Source of the DNA: a virus
Strand: one strand, 5' to 3'
Length of the DNA stretch: 64,000 nt
IMG/VR virus record: IMGVR_UViG_3300005573_001621
This document shows, piece after piece, positions 1 to 26,726 of the stretch (position 1 is its first letter; each line of letters starts with the position of its first letter). The notes beneath the pieces are model-generated. The model was given only the letters and a program-made list of their open reading frames with translations. It was not told the origin of the DNA and made no database searches. A program made the translations under genes and the position numbers.

Positions 1-408
1 GAACAGAAAAAAATCGAAGAAGCTATTTCTACCTATAAAGAAAAGCAGAGCTTAGAAGGGCTCTATAAAGAGTTCTGCACTGCAGGGTCTGGGCGCGCTT
101 CAAAAGCTGCAAATGCGCTTGAAGACGCTTTTGCTTTACTTAACCGATTGTTTCAGGCTTTCGCAGACAATATCTCAGAAGCTGAAATACAGTCCGACCC
201 AGAGCTAGGGAAGACATTAGTAGAGAGAATTCAAGAAGAGCGCGCTGAAGTAGAAGAAAATTGGCCGCAGCTTGTTCTTCATTCTTATAGTTTCTTTCTC
301 GGGACTCAAGCGTATGCTGAAGTCTTGCAGGCTATTATAAAAGACTATATTGAAGACACGCTAGTCGCTATAGAGAGCGTGCTCTACAGGGCTGAGGGAG
401 AACAATAG
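1..408 (+). CDS. Hypothetical helical protein, 5' partial
   Basis: Frame of ORF 148..408 is open back to base 1; E/K/L-rich. Confidence 0.7.
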   Translation, partial: EQKKIEEAISTYKEKQSLEGLYKEFCTAGSGRASKAANALEDAFALLNRLFQAFADNISEAEIQSDPELGKTLVERIQEERAEVEENWPQLVLHSYSFFLGTQAYAEVLQAIIKDYIEDTLVAIESVLYRAEGEQ

Positions 409-409
409 A

Positions 410-934
410 GTGCTTGTGGATCTAGAGTTTGATCTTGAGAAAGCTTTACAGACTATTCACTGCCATCGAGAGTTTAATAATACTAGCTGCCCGGGAGAGA
501 AGTTTGAGCTAGAGAGCTTCAAAGCTGTTATTCGTGAGACAGCGAAAGAACATAAATTTGATCTTTTTAAGCTTATTCCAGAGTATCTAGTCGTTCAGCC
601 GACTTCTAGAGTCTGGGAGGAGATTGTTATTCATCATTCAGCTTGTGATGATACCATTCTTTCAGATTGGGAGAGCATTTGGGCTTATCATCTTAAAGAC
701 CGAGGCTGGGGTGCTATCGGATATCACTTTGGTATCGAGAAAGTAAAAGACTTATACGTAATACGCCAGGGAAGGAGCTTGGATAAAGACGGAGTTCATT
801 GCAGAGGACATAATTCAAAAGCAGTCGGAATCGTGTTTGTAGGGAACTTCTCAAAGTATTCTCCGACTCTTGAGCAGCTCCGACTCGGAGCCAAGCTCTG
901 TTTAATGCTTTTCTCTTTAGGGATTGTCAAGTAA
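410..934 (+). CDS. N-acetylmuramoyl-L-alanine amidase (Amidase_2/T7-lysozyme/PGRP fold), circularly permuted
   Basis: IVIHHSA, GWGAIGYHF, GRSL..GVHCRGHNSKAVGIVFVGNF..PT.EQL; the HRE..TSCPG Zn-ligand segment is at the N-terminus. Confidence 0.88.
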   Translation: MLVDLEFDLEKALQTIHCHREFNNTSCPGEKFELESFKAVIRETAKEHKFDLFKLIPEYLVVQPTSRVWEEIVIHHSACDDTILSDWESIWAYHLKDRGWGAIGYHFGIEKVKDLYVIRQGRSLDKDGVHCRGHNSKAVGIVFVGNFSKYSPTLEQLRLGAKLCLMLFSLGIVK

Positions 935-936
935 CT

Positions 937-1434
937 ATGCCATCGATGGAAGAACTTATAAAGCTGACTAAATGGTTCTTATGTAATGAGCGGAGAACTT
1001 TTCGGCGAGCTTTAGAAGATGATGAGTCAGCATTTGTTATTGCTGTTGACTTCGATGGAGTGATTTTTGATCCTGAGACTTCGAAACTGATTCCTGGCGC
1101 AAAAGAAGCATTAGAGGAAATCAAGAGCCTCAAAGGAAAGATCGTTATTTTTTCTGGCAGATGCGGTCAGGGTGGAGAACTGATAAGGAAATACACTAAT
1201 AAAGACCCTGACGCTGAGATGAGATCATTTCTAGAAGAAAATAAAATTCCTTACGATGAGATCTGGACCGGGACTGCTAAGCCTCTAGCAGATTGGTTCG
1301 TCGAAGATAAAGCAATTCCGCCATTTCAGGGATGGGATCACGTTTTAGAGTTTGTCAAAAAGCAGTTAGACTCATCTTTTGAGTCGATCTTAGATCGTGA
1401 GATTGAAGAAGAGAAAGAAGCAGCTAAGAAATGA
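937..1434 (+). CDS. HAD-superfamily phosphatase/nucleotidase-like protein
   Basis: VIAVDFDGVI (motif I), IVIFSGR (motif II), FVEDKA (motif IV). Confidence 0.8.
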   Translation: MPSMEELIKLTKWFLCNERRTFRRALEDDESAFVIAVDFDGVIFDPETSKLIPGAKEALEEIKSLKGKIVIFSGRCGQGGELIRKYTNKDPDAEMRSFLEENKIPYDEIWTGTAKPLADWFVEDKAIPPFQGWDHVLEFVKKQLDSSFESILDREIEEEKEAAKK

Positions 1435-1613
1435 TTGCTTGTCCATCTTGTAAATCTTTAGAATGCGAGTGTGTAGATTTTGATTTAATTTATACTACAG
1501 TCTACCGCTGCAGGGAGTGTGGAGTTATCTTTGCTAAAGATCAAAAAGGTGAGTTTCGAGTTCTCTATCAGGGCTCTGCACTCAACAAGGAGATGAGCAA
1601 TGGGAGTCACTAA
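1431..1613 (+). CDS. Small zinc-ribbon protein
   Basis: CPSC...CREC; ATGA overlap with upstream gene. Confidence 0.65.
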   Translation: MIACPSCKSLECECVDFDLIYTTVYRCRECGVIFAKDQKGEFRVLYQGSALNKEMSNGSH

Positions 1614-2055
1614 TCGAGGAAAGAAGCTAATTTTAGAGTGGGCTTTCAGACTCAATAAGCCTTCAAACTTTTACGTTCTTTTAGCAACTTCAGCGGTCAC
1701 ACCGACTGAAGATACTAATATCGTAAATGACATACAAGAAATCGCAGCTGGAAATGGGTATTCTAGTGGGGGACAGCAAATTCCAGCTTCAGAAATAGGA
1801 TTTCCAATTTTAGTCGAAGACGACACTGCAAATCGAGGCTATATTAAAGTAGCAAATCTTTCCTGGACAGCTAGCGGAGGGAATCTTCCTCCTTCTGGAC
1901 TGGGAGCTAGATATGCGATTCTCACTGATGATGCTGATCCTAATCCTATCTATCGGAATGTCATAGCTTTCTGGGATCTGGGCTCAGATATTATTTTATC
2001 GCCAGGCCAAACTCTAGAATTGAATGGCTTGGAGCTTAGACTCAATGAGCCGTAA
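1600..2055 (+). CDS. Probable virion structural (tail/baseplate) beta protein
   Basis: VTNRGK..L, EIAAGNGYSSGG, WTASGG..L, AFWDLGSD pattern seen in phage tail proteins; AGGAG SD. Confidence 0.6.
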   Translation: MGVTNRGKKLILEWAFRLNKPSNFYVLLATSAVTPTEDTNIVNDIQEIAAGNGYSSGGQQIPASEIGFPILVEDDTANRGYIKVANLSWTASGGNLPPSGLGARYAILTDDADPNPIYRNVIAFWDLGSDIILSPGQTLELNGLELRLNEP

Positions 2056-2066
2056 GGAGGTCTAAA

Positions 2067-2438
2067 ATGAGCAATCTTTTAATTTCTTTACTCTTCTACT
2101 TTGTAGAATGCTTCGGAGAAGAGGGCATCTTCAGACTAGTTTTGATGAGCTTTTTGATGTCTCTTGGTGTTCCCGCACTTCTCACCGTTCTGATCGCTGC
2201 AGTTTTGTACGGACTTTCTCATTTTATTTTGTTCAAGCTCAAGATGGTTTTAGCAAGCGCTGTTTTAGGAATAGTTCTTGGACTGATCTTTCTACTTTTG
2301 TCTCATAACTTAGCACTTGCTTATTTCGTATGCAGCATAGTCCACTTCTTCGCAGGGGTTTGTTCTATTCAGATAGGTTTCACGCACTCACAGATGAGAG
2401 AGGCTTTCTACGATGTCAACGGCAGCAGTGAACAATAG
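2067..2438 (+). CDS. CPBP (CAAX protease/Abi) family intramembrane metalloprotease-like protein
   Basis: About four hydrophobic helices with EEGIFR, LYGLSH and terminal H motifs in family order. Confidence 0.65.
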   Translation: MSNLLISLLFYFVECFGEEGIFRLVLMSFLMSLGVPALLTVLIAAVLYGLSHFILFKLKMVLASAVLGIVLGLIFLLLSHNLALAYFVCSIVHFFAGVCSIQIGFTHSQMREAFYDVNGSSEQ

Positions 2439-2871
2439 CAGTAAGAAAGTTTTCTCGGTTAAAGAGATCATAGACTCATTAAATAACGGGGGCCGACTTG
2501 ATCTCTCGATGCTTTCTGAGGAGCAGATTCAGTCAGCAATTAGCTCTATTGAGAAGACGAAATCGAAAGCTGATATTCAGAGCGCTTTATGGGAGATAGA
2601 AAAGCTGCTGCTCACAGTATTACTTTCTACGAAAGCCGCTGAGAGCCGATTTCAGTCACTTGAGAAAGAAGTAAAAGAAATGATGGTTCTTCTTAGAGGA
2701 GACCCGCTTTCTAACAGTCAGCAAGTTCAAGAAGGGCTGTTAGGAAGAATTAGAACATTAGAAAGCGACTTCGGGAGAGCGAAATCTGCAGTTCGATATC
2801 TAAGCTGGCTATTAGTGGGTACTTTAGGGTGGATTGTTCGAGAGCTCTTGAGCAAGATTCTTCATTTTTAG
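2413..2871 (+). CDS. Coiled-coil protein with C-terminal TM helix (holin/lysis accessory candidate)
   Basis: Heptad-rich body, hydrophobic YLSWLLVGTLGWIV near C-terminus. Confidence 0.45.
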   Translation: MSTAAVNNSSKKVFSVKEIIDSLNNGGRLDLSMLSEEQIQSAISSIEKTKSKADIQSALWEIEKLLLTVLLSTKAAESRFQSLEKEVKEMMVLLRGDPLSNSQQVQEGLLGRIRTLESDFGRAKSAVRYLSWLLVGTLGWIVRELLSKILHF

Positions 2872-2887
2872 AGGTTAGAAGCAGAGC

Positions 2888-3442
2888 ATGAGTGAAGATT
2901 ATAACTTAATTCACCAGACTGAAGCTCCGCTAGATACAACTGGAACGACGGAGCTCTTATTTGCTATTTTCGATACGACAGGGAGTCCCGTGACGGGGAA
3001 GACTCAAGCTGATTTTACTATCTTAACTGCTTCTCCAGGGACTGGATATCCTTCTCCAACAGTAGTAATTTCTGAAGTGGGTGATGGAATTTATAGAGCA
3101 ACTCTTACATTTAGTACGAGCTCTGGCTGGAGTGTTCCGAAGTCTTATTTTATCCGACTCACTTGCGCAGGCACGACGTTAGACTATAGATGTAATCTGA
3201 TTCTATCACCTCTGCTCTCTAAGCTAAATAGAACTTTAGGACTAGAGAATGAAAATCAGTATATAGATCAGATGACTTGGCATACTCAGTTCAATAAGCT
3301 TACTAGTGCGAGGATCAGAGTTTATTCAAACTCCACTGATGTAGGAACTGATAATAACGTGATTGCGACGTATGACGTTAATATTTCGTATGACTCTGTG
3401 ACTGGCAGGATGACGTCATATAAAGTAACTCGAGTGAGCTAA
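2888..3442 (+). CDS. Probable virion structural protein (Ig-like beta domain)
   Basis: T/S/G-rich beta-strand composition, E.GDG.YR motif. Confidence 0.45.
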   Translation: MSEDYNLIHQTEAPLDTTGTTELLFAIFDTTGSPVTGKTQADFTILTASPGTGYPSPTVVISEVGDGIYRATLTFSTSSGWSVPKSYFIRLTCAGTTLDYRCNLILSPLLSKLNRTLGLENENQYIDQMTWHTQFNKLTSARIRVYSNSTDVGTDNNVIATYDVNISYDSVTGRMTSYKVTRVS

Positions 3443-3445
3443 AAC

Positions 3446-3655
3446 ATGGGAAGAGCTCAAGAGCATTGGAATTCAAAGATTTTTTGCCCAAAGTGCCGGC
3501 AAGAAATGATCAAAGTTTGGGATCAACAGTATGGTTTTGGGATTCTTTGTGAGCTCTGCAGGATTTTGATCTGGGATTCTGACACTTTGGAGCCGTACTT
3601 GGAAGCGACATTATTCATAGATCCCCAGCAAGAAATAAGAGCTCCTTCTCGGTAG
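3446..3655 (+). CDS. Small zinc-finger protein
   Basis: CPKC...CELC. Confidence 0.6.
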   Translation: MGRAQEHWNSKIFCPKCRQEMIKVWDQQYGFGILCELCRILIWDSDTLEPYLEATLFIDPQQEIRAPSR

Positions 3656-3690
3656 AGTTGCTTTTCTACTGCAAAGGACTACTTTGAGCT

Positions 3691-4584
3691 TTGTCAGGAA
3701 GCACTCGGTTCACGGTTATTACAGACTATTTAGGCGTCTCTGGTTTAGAGAGATATCAAGATGAAACACGCTATTGTAGATACTTAGTACTCGGGATAGA
3801 CCCGGGTTTAGGGATTGGAGGCCACGCAACTGGCATAGAAGGAGTCTCTCTACGAGACGGGACTCAACTTTTAGAATTTCGTTCTAACTCGACTTCACCA
3901 AGATCCGTAGTTGAAAAAGTTTTAACTTCAATATTTTTAGATCCCAGTTTTGAAACTGTCTTAGTTGTTATTGAATCTAATACAATTGGAAAAGACTTGA
4001 TTTCTAGATATCTAGAACTCCCGGAGTTCTGGGAGTCGAAAAAGATTTCTCTCAAACTTCCTCCTTTATATCAGAGTTTTAAGAAAGATCGACAGCCAAT
4101 ATACGGATTTGAAAGCTCGGCCGCTAATAAACAGATGCTAATTGCAGAAGTCCGAGAGCTGATTAAGCAAGATCCGGAGGTGATTAAAAGTCATCGTCTG
4201 GTGAATGAGCTTTTAGGCTTTCAAATTCTCCCTGGAGGAAAGCTCGGGGCTAAGCACGGATCAGCTCGAACTGATGATCTAGTAATTGCTTACGCTTTGG
4301 CTTTGAAAGGGAGACAATACTATTTTCTCCATAGTCCGGATCCAGCCGTGCTGAGAGCGCTGGATTTTCCAGCTGCTACGGCGTCAGCTTCCGAAGCGAG
4401 TTTGCTTCCTTATTTGGGAAGAATACACTACTCTGCAAGCGAAGAGCCTTTGAGAGTTTTTGATCTTGAAAGGGCTCGGCTGAAAGAAGAAATTTGGAAA
4501 GCGATAAGAGCGGGTCAGAACCCTCTTGAGCTGAGAAAAGCTTTAGAAGATCTTAAGCCAGAAGAGAGAAGTATTGCTGAGTGA
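3691..4584 (+). CDS. terL: Terminase large subunit, RNase H-like nuclease domain encoded as a separate gene
   Basis: VLGIDPG, VVIESNTIG, GFESSAANKQMLI, S.RLVNELLGF, DDLVIAYALA as in the T4 gp17 C-domain. Confidence 0.85.
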   Translation: MSGSTRFTVITDYLGVSGLERYQDETRYCRYLVLGIDPGLGIGGHATGIEGVSLRDGTQLLEFRSNSTSPRSVVEKVLTSIFLDPSFETVLVVIESNTIGKDLISRYLELPEFWESKKISLKLPPLYQSFKKDRQPIYGFESSAANKQMLIAEVRELIKQDPEVIKSHRLVNELLGFQILPGGKLGAKHGSARTDDLVIAYALALKGRQYYFLHSPDPAVLRALDFPAATASASEASLLPYLGRIHYSASEEPLRVFDLERARLKEEIWKAIRAGQNPLELRKALEDLKPEERSIAE

Positions 4585-5516
4585 TAGAAAATCTCTCAAG
4601 AGAAGAAATTATTGCAAGAGTTCTCAGGCTCCAGAAGTTGCCAGAGGGCTTTGAAGAGTGGTTCTCTTATGCTAGAGTTGTTCACCCATCAAAGGGACTA
4701 ATAGCTCCTACGTTTTATCCGAAGTTTAAAGAAATTGTCGAAGCTTTAGTCGAAAAACATTATGTAATTATCTTAAAATCTAGGCAGTGTGGTGTCTCGA
4801 CTCTTCTTTCGCTCTTCTCAATCTATGCTGCTTCGCTTTTCCCTGGCTGGAGTGCAGGAGTAATTTCTAGAAGGCGAGAAGACGCAGTTTCTTTTTTAGA
4901 AAAAGGAAGGATTGCAATTCAATATCTGCCTCTTTGGCTGAGGCCCAAGATCTCAACGTGGAATAAGCTTAGCTTGACTTTTTCTCATGCTTCAAAGATC
5001 TTGACTTCGCCTCCCTCGAAAGATGCATTTAGGGGAGAAACACTTTCTTTGTTAGTGATTGATGAAGCTGCTGCTTGCCGTAGAATAGATGAAGTTTATA
5101 CTGCAGCTTATTTAACTCTCTCAAAGAATTTTTCTTCTTTGCAAGAAGCTTCATCAAGTAGGCCAAAAATGCCCTTCGGGATAGTTATTATCTCCACTGG
5201 CGCAGTTTTAGATAATCCTTCTGCGCAATTCTTCTTTGATATGTGGGATAGAGCAATGATGGGAGCTAATAATTTTGTTCCTATCAAAATTCATTGGTCT
5301 GACGTAGGTTATACTCCAGAGTGGAAGATGGAACAAGCTAAAGCTTTAGGAGAAGATCCAGATAAAATTATGACGGAGCTCGAGTGCGGATTTGTTATAG
5401 CAAGGCAAGACGCGATGGTTTTTCCTCCAGACGTCTTAAGAAAAATTCAAACTCAAATTGCTAGAGCAGATCGTGTTCCTTATGAAAGATGGCAAGCTCA
5501 GAAAGTGGGAGTCTAA
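4581..5516 (+). CDS. terL: Terminase large subunit, ATPase domain encoded as a separate gene
   Basis: HPSKG, ILKSRQCGVST (Walker A), LVIDEAA (Walker B), IIST (motif C), FVPIKIHW...ELECGF; GTGA overlap. Confidence 0.9.
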   Translation: MIENLSREEIIARVLRLQKLPEGFEEWFSYARVVHPSKGLIAPTFYPKFKEIVEALVEKHYVIILKSRQCGVSTLLSLFSIYAASLFPGWSAGVISRRREDAVSFLEKGRIAIQYLPLWLRPKISTWNKLSLTFSHASKILTSPPSKDAFRGETLSLLVIDEAAACRRIDEVYTAAYLTLSKNFSSLQEASSSRPKMPFGIVIISTGAVLDNPSAQFFFDMWDRAMMGANNFVPIKIHWSDVGYTPEWKMEQAKALGEDPDKIMTELECGFVIARQDAMVFPPDVLRKIQTQIARADRVPYERWQAQKVGV

Positions 5517-5519
5517 ACG

Positions 5520-6959
5520 GTGCCAGAAGATACTCTTGTTCAGCTTTATCAAGAACCGATTCATGATTCTAAAGTCTCAGTTTTAGTCCCAAGTTTGACG
5601 CTTTACTTTGAGCCTCTATCTGGATCCGGAAAAGAAGAATCAATAACGGTCTTCGGCCAGTCATCTTTAGCATCAGCTTTACTCTGGAGTAGCTGGGGCG
5701 CTCCATTAGCTTTAGTTGCTAAGCAGCAGTCTCATTATGTTGAAAGATATCTCCAAGCTTTGAGTATGTTAGCTTTCTCTTCTAGAGGAGGCTATCTTCT
5801 TTTGAGAGAACTTCCACATTTTTTTAAGCAGAATACTCTGGGCTGCTTAGTTGGAGCTTTTTTAATAGGCGGCGATCTAGAGGTCTCAGCGATCTTAGCT
5901 CAGAGACAAGCTGGCAAGTATGTCACGAGAGTTATTCTTCATTTCCCGGTTGTCAAACAAGCTCAATACGACGAGGGCGGGCTTACGGGGGAGCTTGAGA
6001 TCCGAGACGTAGAGATGTCAGTGATGTTTCAAGGCTTATTCAAGACTCCTTCAAGATCTCCAGCTACGTTTAAGCCGGCTGGATCTCCAATTTCTGACTA
6101 CTATCGATTAGTTTGTGTTGAGTCGAGTCTATTTTCTTCTCTTTGGTATAAGCCAGCTGTAGTGACAACTGCTGAAACTGCTGCTTTACAAAAAATACTC
6201 AGAAGCTTAGCAGATGGGTTTAGCGGCGCATTACAATCAGAAATTACAGTTCCTATTCGGTTTTTTAAGAGTATATTTTTCCCTCAGCAGGCTCGAAGGC
6301 TTGATGTTGTAACAGATGCTTTAGTTGAGACTGCGCTTTCTAAAGGGACTAAAGACTTTCTGCTTGCTGGTAAGTTTTCAGCGATTTCTTTTGGAACAGA
6401 AAAAGGCTTCGGCCTTTTTAAGCTTAAAGACGTTGAAGGGCTTTTAGCAGATGAGAAGAATCAAGAAGCTTTAGATACGCAGATCCCAGCTATATCTCCA
6501 GGAAAGATGAGTGTCTCGGCAGATAAGACTGCTATTCCAGGGACAAAATCTTATCAAGAAGGCAAAGATGCTCTAGCAGGGCCGTCTAGATTCCCAATCT
6601 TCTTTACTCGTAGCGCTGTCAAAGTTTTAGAGTACAGAGAGATTTTTGCTCAAATATCGCCAGATTTTGAAAAAACTTCGAGTTCATTCTTTATTCTCAG
6701 ACTAGAGGCTTCTCAAGCTGCTCGGCTTACTCCAGGGCGAGTACTCCACTTTATTATTTTGCCAAGAATGCTTTATGTTAAGCTGTTTATAGTTTCTGCT
6801 GCTGTTTTATATTACAAAGTTACAGAATCTCCTATTGGAGAGATGGAGGTCATAGGGCTTGAGATCAAAAGAGAGCTGCTATCAGAGGTAGTAGATTACG
6901 AGACACTCGAGTCGATTTCTAAAGCTTTTGAGAAAGAGCTAACTGAAGAAGGGAGCTAA
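5520..6959 (+). CDS. Hypothetical protein, possible baseplate hub
   Basis: Beta-rich; C-terminal LTPGRV pattern loosely hub-like; weak. Confidence 0.3.
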   Translation: MPEDTLVQLYQEPIHDSKVSVLVPSLTLYFEPLSGSGKEESITVFGQSSLASALLWSSWGAPLALVAKQQSHYVERYLQALSMLAFSSRGGYLLLRELPHFFKQNTLGCLVGAFLIGGDLEVSAILAQRQAGKYVTRVILHFPVVKQAQYDEGGLTGELEIRDVEMSVMFQGLFKTPSRSPATFKPAGSPISDYYRLVCVESSLFSSLWYKPAVVTTAETAALQKILRSLADGFSGALQSEITVPIRFFKSIFFPQQARRLDVVTDALVETALSKGTKDFLLAGKFSAISFGTEKGFGLFKLKDVEGLLADEKNQEALDTQIPAISPGKMSVSADKTAIPGTKSYQEGKDALAGPSRFPIFFTRSAVKVLEYREIFAQISPDFEKTSSSFFILRLEASQAARLTPGRVLHFIILPRMLYVKLFIVSAAVLYYKVTESPIGEMEVIGLEIKRELLSEVVDYETLESISKAFEKELTEEGS

Positions 6960-6962
6960 AAG

Positions 6963-8447
6963 ATGCCAGGTCTTACGGGAACTACTTCTGAGTTTTATCT
7001 CATAAACAAGGGAAAGAAATCTTCTCCCTCTGTTCAAGAAGATCAAACTACTGGGATCTTAGTCCACAAAACGATGGCAGACGAGATCATTTCGTCGATC
7101 CCTATGCCAGGCGGGTTCGAGTTCGGGAAGCTCCCAAAGATTAAGAAATCTGCTAACACTCTTCTAGACCGAGCAAAACTTTTATACATCTATTATTTGC
7201 TGCAATCTGCTCAAAGCGTTCAGCTAAACGTGTTGAATCAATGGATGAATTGGGCAAACTTCTCGATCTCCGGGATAGGGAAAGTGATGTTTTCGACTAA
7301 TCCTTTATTTTATATTTCTGAAGCAAAAAGATTAGCAGCTCTGAGCTCTAAAGGGGGAGAGTCTAGAAAAGAACCCTGGGAAGATCTCCAGCTCTGGGAT
7401 AGAGAGTCAGGATTGAATATATCTGCTTTGGCTGCTGCTTTCTTAGTAGGAAAAGCGGGCAATTCTTTCAAAGCTTTCCCGTATGTTCCTCTTATGATTG
7501 CTTCAGTTGACTCAATGTCGGTTGAAGCGACAAATAAGTCACAGTTTACTTTCGATTTCTCAGACTATTTTCCTGCTGAATTTCAATTCTTAGCTATGTC
7601 GATTCAGGGCGGGAGGTTTATGAATGCTGCAGCAGAAGTCTTGAGTTTTCTAGTTAAAGCTCCTTTTTATCCCGTCGAAGCGATTGCTGGAAAAGCTGGA
7701 GAGGGACTGGTTAAGAGCGTTGGAGAAGCAGTTAAAAGGATTGTTAGAGATCCAGCTCAAATATTCACTGTGAGGGGTCCTCGTCTCTGGCGAGGTTCTT
7801 CAGAGCCTAACTATTCAATAAGCGTAACAGTTAGAATTCCGTATGTTTTAGGATTTGATGCTGATTCTCAAACAGATCTCGTCCCTCCAGTCGCTCTTTT
7901 AGACCCTTCGAGTCGATCACAGTATTCGGAAGTAATACAACAAGCTATTTACCGAACTATAATATTACCTTTTAGAGCTCTTCTCAAATATCAGCTTTAT
8001 GGAGCTTATCAGGGATTCTTGCTCTATATTGCTAGACCGGGCTCAGTCGGGGTTTCGGGTGCATTTACTAACTTAGCCGAGCTTTTCGAGCCTAAGACAT
8101 CAGGCTTTTCAAATTCAGGGCTTCTTCTTTATGGGATTCCTTCTAGTCCTATCACTGTAGACTTGCAAACGAATGATACTGCTGGGTATGCGCCGCAGAG
8201 CTTTAAGATCTCTATTCAAGGCTCACAGGCTTGGTATGCTTATCTGCCAGACTTGTCTCAGATGGCTTCAGCTTTAGCATCAGAAGAAGCTAGAAAACAA
8301 TACGAAGCAGATCTTATGAAACTGCAAAAAGAAGCTCAAGCGCCTGAGAAAGTAGAAGAAGAGAAACCCAAGCAAGGAGAGCAAGAATATCCCGACCTCA
8401 GTGGAGTAAACAAAGTGCAAACTGGCGAAATTGGGAAAGCGAAATGA
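6963..8447 (+). CDS. Hypothetical protein, possible tail-tube initiator
   Basis: PRLWRGSSEPNYSISV loosely resembles gp48/54-like proteins; weak. Confidence 0.3.
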   Translation: MPGLTGTTSEFYLINKGKKSSPSVQEDQTTGILVHKTMADEIISSIPMPGGFEFGKLPKIKKSANTLLDRAKLLYIYYLLQSAQSVQLNVLNQWMNWANFSISGIGKVMFSTNPLFYISEAKRLAALSSKGGESRKEPWEDLQLWDRESGLNISALAAAFLVGKAGNSFKAFPYVPLMIASVDSMSVEATNKSQFTFDFSDYFPAEFQFLAMSIQGGRFMNAAAEVLSFLVKAPFYPVEAIAGKAGEGLVKSVGEAVKRIVRDPAQIFTVRGPRLWRGSSEPNYSISVTVRIPYVLGFDADSQTDLVPPVALLDPSSRSQYSEVIQQAIYRTIILPFRALLKYQLYGAYQGFLLYIARPGSVGVSGAFTNLAELFEPKTSGFSNSGLLLYGIPSSPITVDLQTNDTAGYAPQSFKISIQGSQAWYAYLPDLSQMASALASEEARKQYEADLMKLQKEAQAPEKVEEEKPKQGEQEYPDLSGVNKVQTGEIGKAK

Positions 8448-9229
8448 ATCTCAAAAAGTCTGTCCAGAAAAGAGAAGAAGATTTATTCGCTAAGTTTGCT
8501 TCTCTTCTTTCTAGAAAGTCAAAGCTTTCTAAAGATAAGAAGCAGCTCTTGAAAACTCATAGAGATATTGTTAAACAAGTCTCTAAGTCGCTCTCTAGAC
8601 CGAAACTAAAGAGAAATCCTCTTCTTTTAGTCTTGTATCTTTTTTACTTGACTGCTCTGGACAATTTTGTGTCGAGTCTTTTAGGAGTTAAATCATCTCC
8701 TCCTCTTCCGAGTCTCTGGAAGAAATCTTCTAAAATCAAAACAGAAAAATTAGCGCTTGTTCTCTTAAAATGCTCCGGCTCAGAGACTCTCTCTCATATC
8801 ATCCAAGAACAAAAACAAATCCGTAGTTTAGTAGAGCAAGACGAGCTGCAGAAAGAAGACTCTGAGGAAGAAGGAGAGCTTGAGCCGGAGAGAATCCCGG
8901 GCGAATTCGAGACTGCTAGTCAAGCTCTGGGAGACGAAGAAGTTCAGCGAAGCTTAGATCTAGTTCATCAAGCTGAGACAAAAATCTCGGGCGTCATAAA
9001 GCGAGGCGAGAAGCTCTTAGAAGTCTTCTCTTCTATTTTGCCATTCTTAACTGAAGAAGAATATACCACTTTTTATGAAGCAAGAAATGAAGTTGATTCA
9101 ATGATTTATTTCTTACAGAGTAAGCTAGACGCGGGTGAAGCTTTTGATGAGCTCACTCTAGAGGCTGCTAAAGAAGCTGACTTGCTCTTCTCTCAACTTG
9201 AAGAGATCTTTTCTTCTCTGGAGAGCTGA
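8444..9229 (+). CDS. Hypothetical protein (basic N-half, acidic C-half)
   Basis: Long ORF with ATGA overlap. Confidence 0.6.
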   Translation: MNLKKSVQKREEDLFAKFASLLSRKSKLSKDKKQLLKTHRDIVKQVSKSLSRPKLKRNPLLLVLYLFYLTALDNFVSSLLGVKSSPPLPSLWKKSSKIKTEKLALVLLKCSGSETLSHIIQEQKQIRSLVEQDELQKEDSEEEGELEPERIPGEFETASQALGDEEVQRSLDLVHQAETKISGVIKRGEKLLEVFSSILPFLTEEEYTTFYEARNEVDSMIYFLQSKLDAGEAFDELTLEAAKEADLLFSQLEEIFSSLES

Positions 9230-9262
9230 TTTCTAAATTTCTTAAGAAGGAGAGAGATCCCT

Positions 9263-9481
9263 ATGCGCTGGTACGATATAGTATTTGGTGGATCTAAAGC
9301 ATTCCAGTCGACTCTAGCGATGCTACTGGGGTTCATAGCATATATGGGGCTTGAATCAAGTCTTAAAGCATTACACTTCTGGGAATTGTGTATCTTTCTC
9401 TGCGCGACAGCGGGAGTCTACGGATTTTTCCGAGTGAAAGAATATTCTGTGAGGAATGGGAATACGAACAATGGCAGCTAG
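9263..9481 (+). CDS. Small two-TM membrane protein (holin-like)
   Basis: Two hydrophobic segments, charged C-tail, AAGGAG SD. Confidence 0.5.
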   Translation: MRWYDIVFGGSKAFQSTLAMLLGFIAYMGLESSLKALHFWELCIFLCATAGVYGFFRVKEYSVRNGNTNNGS

Positions 9482-9517
9482 TCGAAGACAACATCTATAG
9501 GGAGGGAGAGCAACAGC

Positions 9518-10288
9518 ATGGATATTCTAGTTGATTATTTCCCTGAGTTAGCTTTTAGTGGAGAATTAAGAACTACGGAGAGTCCGACTGGTCCCATTAA
9601 AACGCTAGTTGAAGGGCTTTCGAAAGCTTCATTGACATCAGATTTGAAGCTTTATAAAGTAGGCCCTATCACTCTCCAGCGAGCTAATGTCAGATCCGGC
9701 AACGGAAGATATTATCCAGCTTCTGTTGTTGAAAAAGCTGTTGAAGAAATCCAGCCAATAGTCAAGTCTATGCGATGCATCGGAGAGCTCGACCACGGAA
9801 ATAATCAAGAGCCCTTCCCTAAGTTGAAAGAAGCTTCACACGTTATCACTTCTTTGTGGTTTGATAAGCCATCTAAAACAGTTCGAGGGACTTTTGTTAT
9901 TCTTCCTACTCCTAATGGCCAAGTTCTAAATACTCTTCTGGAAGCTGGAGTCAGCGTAGGAGTTTCAGTTCGTGGAGTAGGCTCTACGACTAAACGTTTA
10001 GTTGAAGGGCAGTCAGTAGAGTATGTCGATCAATTCAAAATCATTACGTACGAGTGTGTTTCGTGGGCTGGATTTAATGATCTGACTATCTCGAAGGAAG
10101 ATAAAAAGCTTGTTTCTACTCTGACTGAAGGGCTTAAGCTCTCAGCTCAAGATCCTTCACAGAGAGAAAAGCTAATTGAATCATTAAAAGAAGTTCAAAT
10201 GTGCTATTCGGGTCAATTACCAAAAAACCCGATGGAACGTTTGATCTTAGTCGCAAAACTTCTTACTAAAAGGAGGTTGCTTAAATGA
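9518..10288 (+). CDS. Prohead core protease (T4 gp21-like)
   Basis: QRAN..NGRYYP, GELDH, SHVIT, ILPTPNG, GVSVRGVGS. Confidence 0.92.
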   Translation: MDILVDYFPELAFSGELRTTESPTGPIKTLVEGLSKASLTSDLKLYKVGPITLQRANVRSGNGRYYPASVVEKAVEEIQPIVKSMRCIGELDHGNNQEPFPKLKEASHVITSLWFDKPSKTVRGTFVILPTPNGQVLNTLLEAGVSVGVSVRGVGSTTKRLVEGQSVEYVDQFKIITYECVSWAGFNDLTISKEDKKLVSTLTEGLKLSAQDPSQREKLIESLKEVQMCYSGQLPKNPMERLILVAKLLTKRRLLK

Positions 10289-11334
10289 ACAGGAAGATAT
10301 CAGAAATTCTTTCTAACGTCCCAATCAGTCTGGCTACTCCTATAGTCTCAGAGAAAACTGATATGACTTTGCTGAATGAGATCTCTGTTCTCCGTCAAAA
10401 CTATCAAGCTCTTAGAGAAGCTTTAAGGCAGATGGGCGAAGTTATTGAAGAGTCTCAAGAACAGGCTATTGCTCCTCTTACTGATGCTGTTAAGCAGTTA
10501 GGAACAATTCAAGAGAGCGCAGAAGGCGAACTTGAAGAGCTCAAGAAACGAGTAGAAGAGCTAGAGAAAGATCAGGCTGACTTAGTCGATGCATTCCAAG
10601 ATCTGTTAGATGTTTATGAAGCTAAAATCGAAGCAGATCGAGCTGCTGAAGAGGACTTGAGAGCTACGATTGAAGAGGCACTTGACTTAGAGACTGCGGT
10701 CGAGGAAGAAGAAGGCGTGAGCGACGAAGTTGTTGAGTTTGGGAACGCCGTTGTTGACGCGCTAGAAGACATCTACTCGAAAGTAAAAGATATTTCAGAT
10801 GCGATTCGGAGCCAGTTTATCGATACAAAGAAGATTATGGAAGCTGGCGAAACTGAGATCGAGACTGAAGAAAAGAAAGAAGAAGAAGAGAAAGGCGAAG
10901 AAGCTGATAAGGAAGCTATTGATGTGCTGGCTGACAAGTTCAAAAAGCTGCAGAAGCAATTGAGAGAGAAAGGCGAAAAAGAAGAGGAAGGAGAGAAAGA
11001 AGAATACGAAGATAAAGAGAAACCAGAAAGTGAAAAAGCTGACAAAGAAAAAGAAACAGACAAGAAAGAAGACGAAGATAAAGAAGAAAAAGCGAAAGAA
11101 GAAGTTCCTCCAGCTCCAGCTCCTCAGACTCAAGCGCCTGTTCCAGAAGAGACTAAGCAGAAGCCGATTTCTGAAACCGAAGAAGAAGAGGAAGACAAGA
11201 CTGGGATTGGGAAATTGATAGATCTTGCGAGGAAAGCTAAGCAAGTGAAGAAGACTCCCCAGCTCCCCCAGGGAGCAGAAGCATCTAAAGTTGAAACGAG
11301 TGGGGCAGTAGAAGAGAAGCCCTTTCGTACATAA
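10285..11334 (+). CDS. Prohead scaffold/core protein (gp22-like)
   Basis: Acidic coiled coil between protease and major capsid; many L/I-x-E sites; E/K low-complexity tail. Confidence 0.75.
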   Translation: MNRKISEILSNVPISLATPIVSEKTDMTLLNEISVLRQNYQALREALRQMGEVIEESQEQAIAPLTDAVKQLGTIQESAEGELEELKKRVEELEKDQADLVDAFQDLLDVYEAKIEADRAAEEDLRATIEEALDLETAVEEEEGVSDEVVEFGNAVVDALEDIYSKVKDISDAIRSQFIDTKKIMEAGETEIETEEKKEEEEKGEEADKEAIDVLADKFKKLQKQLREKGEKEEEGEKEEYEDKEKPESEKADKEKETDKKEDEDKEEKAKEEVPPAPAPQTQAPVPEETKQKPISETEEEEEDKTGIGKLIDLARKAKQVKKTPQLPQGAEASKVETSGAVEEKPFRT

Positions 11335-11452
11335 GGGCTGGTCCATTTACGAGGCTCGTGCAAATCTTTCTTCTTTAGATGAAAGTGAGCCCCAAACTGA
11401 GATGAGTCGGCTAATTGAGCTGACTCGTTCGACAAGGAGAAAAGGAAGATGA
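11312..11452 (+). other. Candidate +1 frameshift extension of the scaffold
   Basis: +1 frame is open 11312-11449 (..PFVHKGWSIYEARANLSSLDESEPQTEMSRLIELTRSTRRKGR*) and ends in an ATGA overlap with the capsid start; CCC TTT CGT at the junction. Confidence 0.5.
11404..11426 (+). promoter_or_regulatory. Stem-loop upstream of the capsid RBS
   Basis: GAGTCGGCT-AATTG-AGCTGACTC, 9 bp with one G.U pair. Confidence 0.4.
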
Positions 11453-12936
11453 TTAAACTATATCCTGATAAAGTAAGTTCTTCTGAGATTAGCTCTGAAG
11501 ATCGGGTGTTGATCGAAGGGCTCTTAAGAGAGAGCAAAACACTTCTGACGGAGTCTGCTCCATCGCCTCTTGCAACGCCAAGCGCCGTTTCAGCTAAGAG
11601 GTATAACTTGAAGGTGCTTCTTGAGAATGAAGCAGCCAGCCTCAAGCTCTTAACTGAAGGCTTGACAACTGGAGCAAATATAGCTCCGTTAGAAACGTAT
11701 ATCTATCCGGTCTTAACTAGGGCTTTAGTTAACTTACTTGCGTATGATCTGGTCTCTGTTCAGCCAGTTACTAGTACTTTAGCTCAAGTTCGTCTCTTAA
11801 AGTTCCGTCACGGCGTCAATCGTGGCAATATCTCTGAGGGAGCTCCAGCATTACCTTCTTTTGAAAGTAATGTTTCGTTCTCCCCATACTACAGCGGCCC
11901 GTATATAGAAGACGAACCCTGGAATCGAGACTCGGCTCAATTTACCGTGTCTGCTTCTGGAGGCACGGCATCGAAGTCAGTAGAGTATCCAATCACTGGT
12001 AATCTTACTCTTAAGGGTACTGTAGGCACAACGAGTTTTGAGCTGGATTTGACTGATGCTTTTGGTTCATCTAATAAGAAAACTATTATAACTAACATCT
12101 ACGCTTATAGAGACACTGGCAACAAAGTAACAATACTCAACGATGATGACGAAGCTGCTACTTTCACGAATGTGACGCTTTCTTACGTAACTTCGACTGA
12201 AGGCTTTCCAATTTCTCCGGAGTTTGAATTGACTCTAGAGAAATATCCGATCGAAGTAGAAGTCAGGAAGCTTCGCGCAACTGCAACGCTAGAAGCTTTG
12301 TTAGATCTTAGTTCTCATAATGTTGCATATGAGAGTGATCTAGCAGAGATTATGTCTGGAGAGTTGAGAGTAGAGCTCGACCGAACTGTTATAAGAGATC
12401 TTCTGAATGCTGCTACGAGTGCCGGCTATACGAGTACCTGGGACGGCGCGATTCCTGCTAATTGGCCAAGGCCCGTTGCAGATTACTACCGGAACTTGAT
12501 AGTAGAGATTGCAAAAGCTTCAGCAAAGATCTACAGACGGACTCGTCGAGCGCCAGCAAACTGGATCGTGACTTCGCCAGATATAGCGGCTCTCTTAGAG
12601 TCTGCGCAGTTGCTAGTTATGGGTGATACAGGCATAACAGATCTCCAGGGCTACGGCTTAATTCCTCTGGGAATTGTTTCAAGGAGATGGCGTTGCTACG
12701 TAGACCCTCTTATGCCAAGGAACAAAATACTCGTAGGTCTGAAAGGGGCAAGTATTTATGATGCAGGAGCGGTATTCGCACCTTATGTTCCGGCCATTCC
12801 AGTTCTCCAGCCGATTCGAGATGTGATGGTTCCTGAATTTGCATTCCACCTTGGGGTCTATACGGCCGCGGGGTATAAAGTCATAGATCCTGGCTTCTAT
12901 CATGTGATTACAGTGAATAATCTGTACGAGGCATAA
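11449..12936 (+). CDS. Major capsid protein (T4 gp23-like)
   Basis: LLEN, DLVSVQP, VRKLRAT.TLEA..DL, E.EL..IMS.E...ELDR.VI, ANWIVTSP, G....RW..YVDP, FAPYVP. Confidence 0.95.
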   Translation: MIKLYPDKVSSSEISSEDRVLIEGLLRESKTLLTESAPSPLATPSAVSAKRYNLKVLLENEAASLKLLTEGLTTGANIAPLETYIYPVLTRALVNLLAYDLVSVQPVTSTLAQVRLLKFRHGVNRGNISEGAPALPSFESNVSFSPYYSGPYIEDEPWNRDSAQFTVSASGGTASKSVEYPITGNLTLKGTVGTTSFELDLTDAFGSSNKKTIITNIYAYRDTGNKVTILNDDDEAATFTNVTLSYVTSTEGFPISPEFELTLEKYPIEVEVRKLRATATLEALLDLSSHNVAYESDLAEIMSGELRVELDRTVIRDLLNAATSAGYTSTWDGAIPANWPRPVADYYRNLIVEIAKASAKIYRRTRRAPANWIVTSPDIAALLESAQLLVMGDTGITDLQGYGLIPLGIVSRRWRCYVDPLMPRNKILVGLKGASIYDAGAVFAPYVPAIPVLQPIRDVMVPEFAFHLGVYTAAGYKVIDPGFYHVITVNNLYEA

Positions 12937-12955: not shown

Positions 12956-13900
12956 ATGGTAGAGCTCGTTTGCTCGGTTTGCGGCAAGACTTATAGACGT
13001 AGGCCGAGTCATGTAGCAGGGAGCAAGTACTGTTCTGTTGAGTGCAAAAGAAAGGGCCTCTCAAAGATCATAACTCGAATCTGCCAGTACTGTGGAAAAG
13101 AGTACTCTGGGACTGCTCACGAGCTCAGCAGAAATCGTTTAAAATTCTGCTCAGCTCGTTGCGCGGCTCTTGCTCGTAAAGATCAAAGAGTCATAACTAG
13201 GGTTTGTCAGCATTGTGGGAAAGAATACTCTGGCTCTCCGTACCAGATGAAATTTCGCAAGAAGTTCTGTTCAGTAGAGTGCATGACTGCAGCACTCTCA
13301 AAGCCCAGAGTGTGCCAGCGATGCGGACAGCTGCTAGAAAAGACTAGAGGAAAGAAGATCAGGCGAAAATATTGCGATTCGTGTCGGCGAGAAGTTCTTA
13401 AGGAAAACGGAAAACGAAATGGAGCTTTAGCTCATGCTAAAGCACTCAATCTCCGTCGTACTCGAATATGCCGTCGATGCGGAAAAGAGTTTGTGCTTCC
13501 TCCTTTAGTCCAATGCCACAAGCGCTATTGTGATGACTGCCGTCGGATAGTTCACCGAGAGAACGGCGCTAAAGGAAATCTGGTTCTTGCTAAGAGAGGC
13601 AAAAGAACTTCAGCTGAGCTTCAAGCTAGGGAGTTCTTAGCATCTCTTGGGCTCCAGTTCGACGAGCAAGTGCAGATCGGTCCTTACGTCGCTGACTTTG
13701 TATTAAAAGATCAAAAAACGATAATCGAAGTCGACGGCGAGTACTGGCATTCTAGACAAGATGCAAAAGAGGCCGATACAGAAAAAGAGCAGTATTTAAG
13801 CTCTCTGGGCTATCGAGTCTTTCGTCTAGCTCAGAGCGCTAATCGTCCCTACGTCTTGACAGAATCGAGCAAACGAGCTCTGCTTGAAGCTTTAGCTTAA
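12956..13900 (+). mobile_element. Free-standing putative homing endonuclease: tandem Zn-ribbon repeats plus DUF559/Vsr-like (EDxHD) nuclease
   Basis: Repeated CxxCGKxY...KFCSxxC units; IGPYVADF..IIEVDGEYWH..D..K..YL..LGYRVFR. Confidence 0.75.
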
Positions 13901-23945: not shown

Positions 23946-26726
23946 ATGATAGTTTTGATTGATCGTCACAAGGCTATCACCCGAGGCGAAGCTCAACTGC
24001 TTTTTTCTTTGATTCCAGAAGAACATCGTCCGGACTCTCAGCTCTTCTGTGTTCTGCCAGAAGGGAGGAGTTTAGAAGACTTTAAAGAAGCTAGCAAAAA
24101 AGTCTGGGAGAAACTAGATACTTATCTAACTCCCGAGCAAGTCATAGTCGCTTTCGGTAGTGCATCGAAATCAATCGTTCCTCAATGGAAAGCAGCTCCT
24201 TTTTCAGTTTCGAAAATCACTAAAGGCTCAAAAACATTCGCGCTCATTGGGATGCCAGCATCAGCAGATGTCATTCCCGGGTGGGGAATAGAATGTTATT
24301 ATTCTGCAAAGAATATCTCCGAATACCTGAGAGAAATAATCAGAAAAGCCAGATCTGGCGAGCTCAAAGATCATTTCAAGCTCCAGATAGAAGAAGAAAG
24401 CATCGAAGTTGTTAATCAAGGAACCGAGCTCCCCAGACTGGCGGTTTCTGTGGGTCCAGAAGCTCTGAGAGATTTTCTGAAAGCTGTTGATTTTTCACGT
24501 CCTTTGAGCTTAGACTTAGAGACTACTGGTTTACTTTTTTATAAAGCTAAAATTCTTTCAATCGCTCTCTCTCAAAGAAAAGACTCTGGAGAGATCGTAT
24601 CGGTATTTACTCATTGGGATCAAACTACAAAAGAACTGATGAAAGATTTCTTAGAAAGAGCGCCAGAAACACTCTTGATCCTGGGAGCGAACTTAAAATT
24701 CGACTTTTTAGCTCTAGCGTGGGAGTGGAGAGCTCAAAAGGATCAAATGATCGATCTTTTTACTAAGTTTCGGTGGGGAGATGTAATTCTTCGTTTCATT
24801 TCGCAAGATACTTCTCGAGTTCGAGCGAAAAGTTTAAAATATCTGGCAGCTCGGTATCTTTACTGGCCAGATTATACTTTAGCTGTGACTCAGTCAGATT
24901 CTTCTCGTCAGACTCTACACGGATTCTTCGCAAAGCAAGAAGCTGGATCAGACACAGAATCTTACCTGACTTATAATGTATTAGATACAATTGCTCCTAT
25001 TCTCCTGTGGGAAATAGCTGAGCAAGACCCTTCTTTATCAAGCTATGAGATTAGTTCAATCTATTGGATCATTCTAGAAAGGATTTCGAAGCTTCTTTTT
25101 GCCGTCTCACTAAAAGGAGTTCATATCGACTGGGCGAAATGTCAAGCGTGGGGGGACATCTTAAAGCAAGGCTTAGAAGAGAAAAAAGCTGAGATTCAAA
25201 AACTGAGCTCGATCACAAATCCTAACTCGACAAAACAGGTCGTTCCTGTTTTGAAAGCGCTGGGCGTTGATCTTTCTTCTCTTAAAAGAACTGATTCGGG
25301 TGAATTGTCAATTAACGCTGAGAATTTAGAAGCGCTTCTAGAGAAATTAGACCCTAACTCAAAAGAGTATACTCTAATTCAGGCGTTATATCAATATAGA
25401 TCAGGTCGTCACTTACTGGCGAATTTCTTAGACCCTGAAGTCTGGAAGCGGTATTCTGACGACGAAGGGATTCTTCATAGTGATTATAATCAGCATCAAG
25501 TTTCAAGCGGGAGGCTTTCTTCTTCGTCTCCCAACTTACAACAAGTAGGAGCTTTAAGAGTCATTTTCAAAGCTGGAAGACTCGCATTTGATGCTTACGA
25601 TAAAGTCAAAAATATCCGAGAGCTCTTTATCCCTCCGAGCCCTTCTGAGAAGGTTGGGGAGATCGACGGCTCTCAGATGGAGCTCAGAATTTTTGCTCTC
25701 TTAATGCAAGACCCTGAGCTTTTGTCCAGATTCAGAGCTCAAGAAGATCTATATAAGAGCTTAGCTTCGTTAGTTCATAATAAGCCGATGGATCAAATCA
25801 CAACAGAAGAAAGAAGCTGGGTTAAGACCATGACTTTAGGCGCTCTGTACGGAGTCTCTCTGAGAAGAGCGATCGCTTTAATAAAAAACGCTGATCCCGA
25901 AAGCATAAAGAGAACGTATTTCTTATTGCATTCAAAAGTAAAAGGGATCGATGAGTTAGCTCAGTGGGGAGAACATCAGGTCGCTTCTAGAGCAAATACT
26001 CCAGAGCGCTGGAGTGATCCAGTACGAGGAGTTACGAGAGAGAGAGTTCTTTTAGCTTTAGAGGGCTTCGTTTATACTCCAGACAGGTTCAAACGAGTCT
26101 TCTATGATCTTAAGTCTTCTATACTTAATTTCCCTGTTCAGGGCTTCGCATCAGACGTGATGCTTCAGATGGCTTGGGGCGCTTGGAAGAATTGGAGGAA
26201 AGCTGGACTCTCGATTTTTAATGTCGTTCACGACTCTTTTTTGTTTTCTGGAACAAAAGAGCTATTAGAAGAGTTCAAAGATTGGGCTGTTAGATATCTG
26301 CCTGAAGTTTTAACAACGAGATGCCAATTCTTAACAAAAGAAGATCTAGAGTTTTTCTATAGAAGACTTCTAAAGTATTTCCCTTCGAAAGACGGATTTT
26401 ATGAGATCCCGAGGATAGAGATTGACTTCGGGATGGGCTCTAATTGGGGAACAGTCCAAAAAAGCGTTCAGTCTTCTGCTCTAGCTAGGGGATTGGTAGT
26501 CCCAGATAATCTCAGGCTTCTCAGCTCATCTTTTTATAGGATTCTTCCGATCTTAGAAGTAGACGACGCTCTAGCTGTAGGCTCTCATATTTTAATCCAG
26601 CAATCTAGAGTCTTAGTACCGGTCTCGGTCTTCTCTCAGCTAAAAACTCAATGCCGCTCTGGACTTAATTGGATAGGGACTAGACTGACGCCAGAGCCGA
26701 GTTTTGAGCTGCTTTCGAGAGGATGA
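23946..26726 (+). CDS. polA: DNA polymerase family A with 3'-5' exonuclease
   Basis: SLDLETTG, GANLKFD, YNVLD; SGRLSSSSPNLQQ, DGSQMELR (A), RSWVKTMTLGALYG (B), VHDS (C). Confidence 0.95.
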   Translation: MIVLIDRHKAITRGEAQLLFSLIPEEHRPDSQLFCVLPEGRSLEDFKEASKKVWEKLDTYLTPEQVIVAFGSASKSIVPQWKAAPFSVSKITKGSKTFALIGMPASADVIPGWGIECYYSAKNISEYLREIIRKARSGELKDHFKLQIEEESIEVVNQGTELPRLAVSVGPEALRDFLKAVDFSRPLSLDLETTGLLFYKAKILSIALSQRKDSGEIVSVFTHWDQTTKELMKDFLERAPETLLILGANLKFDFLALAWEWRAQKDQMIDLFTKFRWGDVILRFISQDTSRVRAKSLKYLAARYLYWPDYTLAVTQSDSSRQTLHGFFAKQEAGSDTESYLTYNVLDTIAPILLWEIAEQDPSLSSYEISSIYWIILERISKLLFAVSLKGVHIDWAKCQAWGDILKQGLEEKKAEIQKLSSITNPNSTKQVVPVLKALGVDLSSLKRTDSGELSINAENLEALLEKLDPNSKEYTLIQALYQYRSGRHLLANFLDPEVWKRYSDDEGILHSDYNQHQVSSGRLSSSSPNLQQVGALRVIFKAGRLAFDAYDKVKNIRELFIPPSPSEKVGEIDGSQMELRIFALLMQDPELLSRFRAQEDLYKSLASLVHNKPMDQITTEERSWVKTMTLGALYGVSLRRAIALIKNADPESIKRTYFLLHSKVKGIDELAQWGEHQVASRANTPERWSDPVRGVTRERVLLALEGFVYTPDRFKRVFYDLKSSILNFPVQGFASDVMLQMAWGAWKNWRKAGLSIFNVVHDSFLFSGTKELLEEFKDWAVRYLPEVLTTRCQFLTKEDLEFFYRRLLKYFPSKDGFYEIPRIEIDFGMGSNWGTVQKSVQSSALARGLVVPDNLRLLSSSFYRILPILEVDDALAVGSHILIQQSRVLVPVSVFSQLKTQCRSGLNWIGTRLTPEPSFELLSRG

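Follow-up and report, generated by a model that had tools for sequence, protein, structure and literature searches.

A conserved large terminase encoded by two genes, nuclease before ATPase, in a phage genome from hot-spring metagenomes

In tailed phages, the fusion of an ATPase and a nuclease in a single large terminase (TerL) chain has been called universal (PMC7824862). A 64,000-nucleotide stretch of phage DNA assembled from hot-spring metagenomes (IMG/VR record IMGVR_UViG_3300005573_001621; hereafter the window) carries, on its plus strand, two ORFs at 3691-4584 (297 aa, TTG start) and 4581-5516 (311 aa, GTG start) that lie in different frames, overlap by 4 nt, and encode a TerL nuclease domain followed by a TerL ATPase domain. 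Is this pair a working large terminase made of two polypeptides, or is it the product of decay, misassembly or a joining process that restores one chain? We conclude that it is a real, conserved two-gene large terminase in which the nuclease gene comes first, and a variant of a known enzyme. The ORFs, homology searches and structure models agree on the domain order reported in a first-pass annotation of the sequence, and the GTGA junction described there can be read directly in the DNA (Table 1).

Table 1. Features of the two terminase genes (window coordinates).
Feature	Coordinates	Strand	Basis or remark
Putative Shine-Dalgarno-like AAAGGA, ~13 nt before the TTG start	3673..3678	+	Read from sequence
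Stand-alone TerL nuclease gene, 297 aa	3691..4584	+	TTG start one codon past an in-frame stop; homology, fold
Nuclease residues 5-15, N-terminal strand, predicted contact of the ATPase tail	3703..3735	+	Co-fold interface
Asp37, nuclease motif I, in GIDPG	3799..3801	+	Invariant in sets of 30 and of 148 nuclease domains
Glu95, nuclease motif II, in VIESN	3973..3975	+	Nearly invariant
Asp196, nuclease motif III, in TDDLVIA	4276..4278	+	Invariant
Nuclease C-terminal tail, residues 215-297	4333..4581	+	Tail lengths compared with 80 fused TerLs
GTGA overlap	4581..4584	+	ATPase start GTG (4581-4583) overlaps nuclease stop TGA (4582-4584)
Stand-alone TerL ATPase gene, 311 aa	4581..5516	+	Pfam, PHROGs, PDB profile, model and fold search
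Deviant Walker A, K-S-R-Q-C-G-V-S-T	4776..4802	+	Lys66 at front; alignments A2, A8
Walker B Asp161 and catalytic Glu162, in VIDEAA	5061..5066	+	Invariant or nearly so in A2, A8; aligned with T4 gp17
ATPase tail, residues 278-304, predicted nuclease docking	5412..5492	+	Ex-interdomain linker plus clade-specific aromatic end

The long ORFs of the window are nearly all on the plus strand, as in a phage genome, and its head genes are of T4 type, encoding a Peptidase_S77 prohead protease (9518-10288) and a Gp23 major capsid protein (11449-12936). A Portal_T4 gene (8393-9985 of L039) lies outside the window, ~9 kb upstream of the terminase genes; it is not near terL, and between the two are a gene for an amidase and several others of unknown function. 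Directly 3' of the Gp23 gene is a gene for a Vsr/DUF559/MTES_1575-type endonuclease (12956-13900) that looks like a free-standing homing endonuclease. The same phage, with its T4-type head genes, encodes a DNA polymerase of family A that includes a 3'-5' exonuclease domain (23946-26726); the DNA polymerase of T4 belongs to family B. A scan for promoters and terminators returned sites no more numerous than in shuffled sequence, and a search for RNA runs with the locus found none.

The homology of the nuclease ORF to terminases is visible only through BLASTP against particular TerLs and through a clade profile. No Pfam or PHROG family matched the ORF at E<=0.1 or 0.01; BLASTP aligned it with residues 370-561 of a 613-aa TerL (3e-11) and with residues 314-475 of the 537-aa fused TerL P0028 (2e-17). 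A profile built from the ORF and two relatives matched 1328 proteins at E<=1e-3, and the best 150 of these 1328 were mostly long TerL-like proteins matched in their C-terminal part. The AlphaFold2 model (pLDDT 84.2, pTM 0.81) has an RNase H-like fold, and its best Foldseek matches were the terminase structures 5m1f (G20c; 2e-6), 3cpe (T4 gp17), 3c6h (RB49) and 5tge (P74-26), with the herpesvirus terminase nucleases HCMV UL89 and HSV pUL15 also among the top matches; TM scores by target against terminase nucleases were 0.62-0.68. Of 148 aligned domains, 143 have the D-E-D catalytic triad, as does every one of the nine members of the split clade described below.

Both ends of the nuclease chain can be compared with those of its relatives. 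The N-terminus lines up with the N-termini of stand-alone relatives, and the model places strand E7-11 there, at a position where all stand-alone nucleases conserve the motif I-x-D-F/Y-L-x-I/V-x-G-L. The C-terminal tail had been described at first as a gain of about 85 residues, a claim that the comparison with fused enzymes overturns: 101 residues follow the motif III Asp here, against a median of 74.5 (IQR 64-93, maximum 138) in 80 fused relatives, and the range within the split clade is 76-101. This tail, which has low model confidence at residues 230-258 and a small helical end, falls outside the interface predicted below. As judged from these sequence lengths, it is the C-terminal tail of the ancestral TerL, lengthened by ~25 aa at most.

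The ATPase ORF is recognized by family searches directly. It matches Pfam Terminase_6N (PF03237; 25.5 bits, cut-off 22) and phrog_5989 (6.6e-24), its clade profile matches T4 gp17 in the PDB (6e-18), and it shares 31% identity with residues 8-266 of a 540-aa TerL from a huge phage. The AlphaFold2 model (pLDDT 91.4) resembles the gp17 ATPase domain (Foldseek match to 2o0j, 2.3e-19; TM by query 0.67-0.70). Together with the Walker B pair D161/E162, the S-T-G coupling motif (S205-T206-G207) is invariant in alignment A2 and invariant or nearly so in A8. The classical Walker A G-K-[ST] is missing, with no Lys after the Gly and a Val aligned with T4 Lys166. However, the fused relatives L001 and P0028 carry the same variant, with the Lys five residues earlier, which indicates that it is a trait of the subgroup and not a sign of decay. 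The first-pass description of the ATPase as keeping the native gp17 N-terminus is right with respect to these fused relatives (residue 26 of P0028 aligns with residue 29, and residue 8 of L001 with residue 7) and fails with respect to T4 gp17 itself, which has ~95-120 more residues at this end.

Alignment with fused TerLs locates the point at which the chain is divided. Residues 26-287 of P0028 align with ATPase residues 29-290 (32% identity) and residues 314-475 with nuclease residues 32-212 (31% identity); between the aligned parts there are 26 residues in P0028 and 52 in the split pair, leaving ~26 extra residues at the break. Similarly, along 22 fused TerLs from IMG/VR the two clade profiles abut, one ending for example at residue 302 and the other beginning at 304. 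The ATPase had been proposed to end just after the interdomain linker, and it does: its tail aligns with the linker of P0028, and the ex-linker helix stays on the ATPase, lengthened by ~12-20 residues that end in a clade-wide aromatic motif (V-P-Y-x-x-W here). Four ATPase-only relatives (306-315 aa, 43-53% identity) share this end point. On the other side of the break, the stand-alone nucleases start a few residues before the conserved strand motif, which is also found in P0028.

Contigs from eight or more further samples show this split, in several layouts. The order seen in the window recurs in L004/L005 and L008/L009, where a nuclease gene of 264-270 aa immediately precedes the ATPase gene. 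L006 and L007 carry the two genes divergently, one on each strand, and in L010 they stand in the canonical order, ATPase then nuclease, as two ORFs with a 17-nt overlap. The window's order, which the first-pass annotation suggested looking for in related contigs, is present in some members of the clade and not in others. At 7 of 10 loci the two genes either adjoin or overlap. L011, L012 and L013 carry a stand-alone nuclease gene with no ATPase gene anywhere on the contig examined. Just upstream of the terminase genes, L009, which has the same split terL, also carries a tubulin-family gene (618-1772) and a 46-aa Ribosomal_S18-like ORF (2488-2628).

An unrooted maximum-likelihood tree built from 148 nuclease domains groups the nine stand-alone nucleases in a single clade (SH-aLRT 90), with fused P0028 as its sister (97), so that a single fission event is enough to account for the clade; other short hits, which the tree places among fused proteins, are probably gene fragments. 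The two halves diverge in parallel (58/41, 54/45, 47/33, 46/30 and 34/about 27% identity). Because L010 retains the canonical order, the non-canonical layouts were probably produced by later gene movements, as far as sequence comparison can tell. The clade is small and known only from metagenomes: among 1.84 billion representatives it makes up ~10 clusters at 50% identity, and word-index protein searches added few further members. The nearest isolated phages examined all have fused TerLs, and searches of isolated phages with P0001, P0013 and P0014 as queries returned no stand-alone nuclease. A single-sequence scan of IMG/VR found no split relatives, and an alignment scan found 22 loci, every one with a fused TerL. 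Three of these fused proteins are much longer (834-1372 aa) and have a large insert within the ATPase domain (L034, 5977-10092; L035, 5941-8442; L036, 5815-8355); the inserts are probably inteins.

Do the two chains bind each other? Co-folding of the ATPase and the nuclease, a check proposed in the first-pass annotation, gave an ipSAE of 0.77 (three runs), whereas the best of three controls scored 0.00. A pass may, however, reflect one-chain TerL structures that the model has learned, and it shows likeness, not binding; the mark applied is reached by 51 of 78 solved complexes and by 2 of 108 mismatched pairs. Confident contacts join ATPase residues 278-304 to nuclease residues 5-15, 22 and 151-186, so that the predicted interface uses the tail of the ATPase and not its core. 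When the ATPase is folded alone, this tail forms helices at 283-295 and 301-309 with lower confidence. The prediction supports a model in which the two chains rebuild a TerL protomer non-covalently, and we read it as leaving the hinge covalently joined to the ATPase core, with the cut lying behind the docking element. It had been suggested that new tails on both chains act as a docking interface; the prediction is consistent with this for the ATPase tail, but the C-terminal tail of the nuclease takes no part in it and, as described above, is not new.

We put the probability at roughly 0.8 that the large terminase of this phage consists of two polypeptides, derived by one cut after the linker, with the nuclease moved to the first position and the protomer held together through the ATPase tail. 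By this account an ancestral one-chain T4-type TerL would have been cut once, just after the interdomain linker, and, in the lineage of the window, the nuclease gene would later have been relocated to a position 5' of the ATPase gene. The 311-aa ATPase would retain the linker as its C-terminal tail, and this tail is predicted by the co-fold to bind the N-terminal strand and the adjacent helix and hairpin of the 297-aa nuclease. The GTGA overlap may couple translation of the two genes. In the assembled enzyme the ATPase would drive headful packaging and the nuclease would cut the concatemer; we take these roles, as well as a role of the nuclease tail in binding the portal, from T4-type terminases. 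The two-subunit packaging motor that had been proposed for this locus thus gains support, at the level of sequence and models, from the clade-wide split, the gene layouts and the co-fold.

Several alternatives have to be weighed against this two-polypeptide terminase. The least probable of them, in our judgment, is that the arrangement arose in assembly or sequencing, or that the chains are joined by recoding, RNA splicing or protein trans-splicing. The data are all metagenomic, yet the sequence is identical in the window, a 7.7-kb JGI contig, a 112,703-bp ENA MEGAHIT contig (ERZ27247228, k141_1315169) and the Logan contigs of two runs, and the Logan contigs bridge the junction at 4581-4584 with zero differences (a 3018-nt contig of run X2 over 3300-5141 and a 701-nt contig of run X1 over 4515-5215), answering the concern about read support raised in the first-pass annotation. 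As for joining, L010 alone, with its canonical order and 17-nt overlap, could in principle hide a frameshift; but the reversed order, and the opposite strands of L006 and L007, make a translational fusion impossible in several members. Against splicing of the RNA, Rfam gave no match in 1-12000, and with only the overlap between the ORFs there is no intervening sequence and no room for an intron or intein, as had been noted for the junction, where no homing endonuclease lies either. Against trans-splicing, the two new chain ends add just ~12 and ~10 residues, which we judge insufficient for the halves of a split intein. Hardly more probable is that terL was duplicated or rearranged and the ORFs are what decay has left of it, with an intact one-chain terL elsewhere doing the work. 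The search for such a gene covered the window and two further pieces of the 112.7-kb contig, together 87.5 kb (78%) of it, and within those 87.5 kb neither tblastn nor profile scans found a second TerL ATPase or nuclease. Moreover, across the clade the catalytic residues and both chain termini are conserved at 25-58% identity, and decay would have lost them; the recurrence of the same split in other samples likewise speaks against remnants.

A weightier, though still improbable, alternative is that there is no stable protomer: the ATPase would form a phi29-like ATPase-only ring, and the nuclease would be free, transiently recruited, or engaged in some other DNA-processing role. The contigs L011-L013, as far as they were examined, fit a nuclease with a possible role outside packaging, and in L012 the nuclease gene adjoins genes for UDG, ThyA, dUTPase and dCMP deaminase. 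The limitation of the predicted interface to the ATPase tail, and the possibility that the co-fold recalls fused TerLs, point the same way. On the other hand, the co-fold score stands well apart from that of its controls, the conserved ATPase tail comprises the whole ex-linker together with the aromatic motif and has a matching N-terminal strand in all of the nucleases, and the genes stay together at most loci. Between this alternative and a permanent complex lies a tentative proposal, which we consider somewhat unlikely, that the nuclease is dissociable and joins an ATPase-only ring solely for the initiation cut and the headful cut. If so, a T4-type motor would translocate DNA without a covalently attached nuclease domain, cutting would be separately regulable, and it would be explained why the nuclease gene was able to switch strands or settle at a remote site.

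The region 3' of the ATPase gene was also considered. A single codon separates the ATPase stop TAA (5514-5516) from the GTG that opens the next ORF (5520-6959, 479 aa), which shares the frame of the ATPase, and tblastn with a fused TerL weakly crosses the stop. We rejected the idea that this ORF is a degenerate piece of the nuclease or is reached by read-through: its hhalign probability with the nuclease profile was 0.2%, and in relatives the gene 3' of the ATPase uses a different frame and has a non-conserved N-terminus. Since the layout is not conserved in relatives, its in-frame arrangement at 5514-5522 is probably a coincidence. A portal was ruled out as well, given the Portal_T4 gene ~9 kb upstream. 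The protein, which has no Pfam, PHROG, PDB or Atlas match, belongs to a conserved group of 421-479 aa and unknown function encoded directly 3' of the ATPase gene in the window, L004, L006 and L008.

Compared with known systems, the pair is closest to the one-chain TerL of the T4 gp17 type (PDB 3cpe, 2o0h; Pfam Terminase_6N/6C): both domains are homologous, with the same fold and catalytic motifs, and the T4-type head module (Gp23 capsid protein, S77 protease and Portal_T4) is present too. It differs in having two genes and two chains, the nuclease first and the cut after the linker. The fused TerLs of the huge phages LR756508 and LR756511 and of Flavobacterium phage immuto belong to this one-chain type. 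Genes for terL are also divided into several ORFs, as here, in the Jug phages (PMC12880540) and cyanophage Mic1 (PMC7156551), where group I introns or inteins are responsible; in those cases, however, the order is canonical and an intervening element is spliced out to give one chain, whereas here the order is reversed, the overlap is 4 nt and no intron was found. The phi29-type packaging ATPase has a vestigial nuclease domain, a degenerate C-terminal domain in cis, in a system that needs no cutting (PMC7672431). It is thus similar in being a packaging ATPase without an active nuclease in the same chain, but here a nuclease with intact catalytic residues is kept as a separate protein. Full-text searches of the literature found no stand-alone, order-reversed TerL nuclease subunit, only terL genes split by introns or inteins in canonical order.

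The finding bears both on annotation and on the mechanism of packaging. Because the nuclease has no Pfam or PHROG match, genomes of this kind can look like carriers of a truncated terL, and their annotation is affected by the unmatched subunit. With regard to mechanism, competing motor models differ in the role they give to the nuclease domain and the interdomain hinge in translocation, and in the domain to which they assign contact with the portal. A two-chain TerL conserved in nature, in a thermophilic setting, would let wild-type proteins show whether the halves need to be joined in a single chain. With such an enzyme it can be asked whether the ATPase alone forms a ring, whether the contact between tail and nuclease is load-bearing, which subunit binds the portal, and whether the nuclease is present during translocation.
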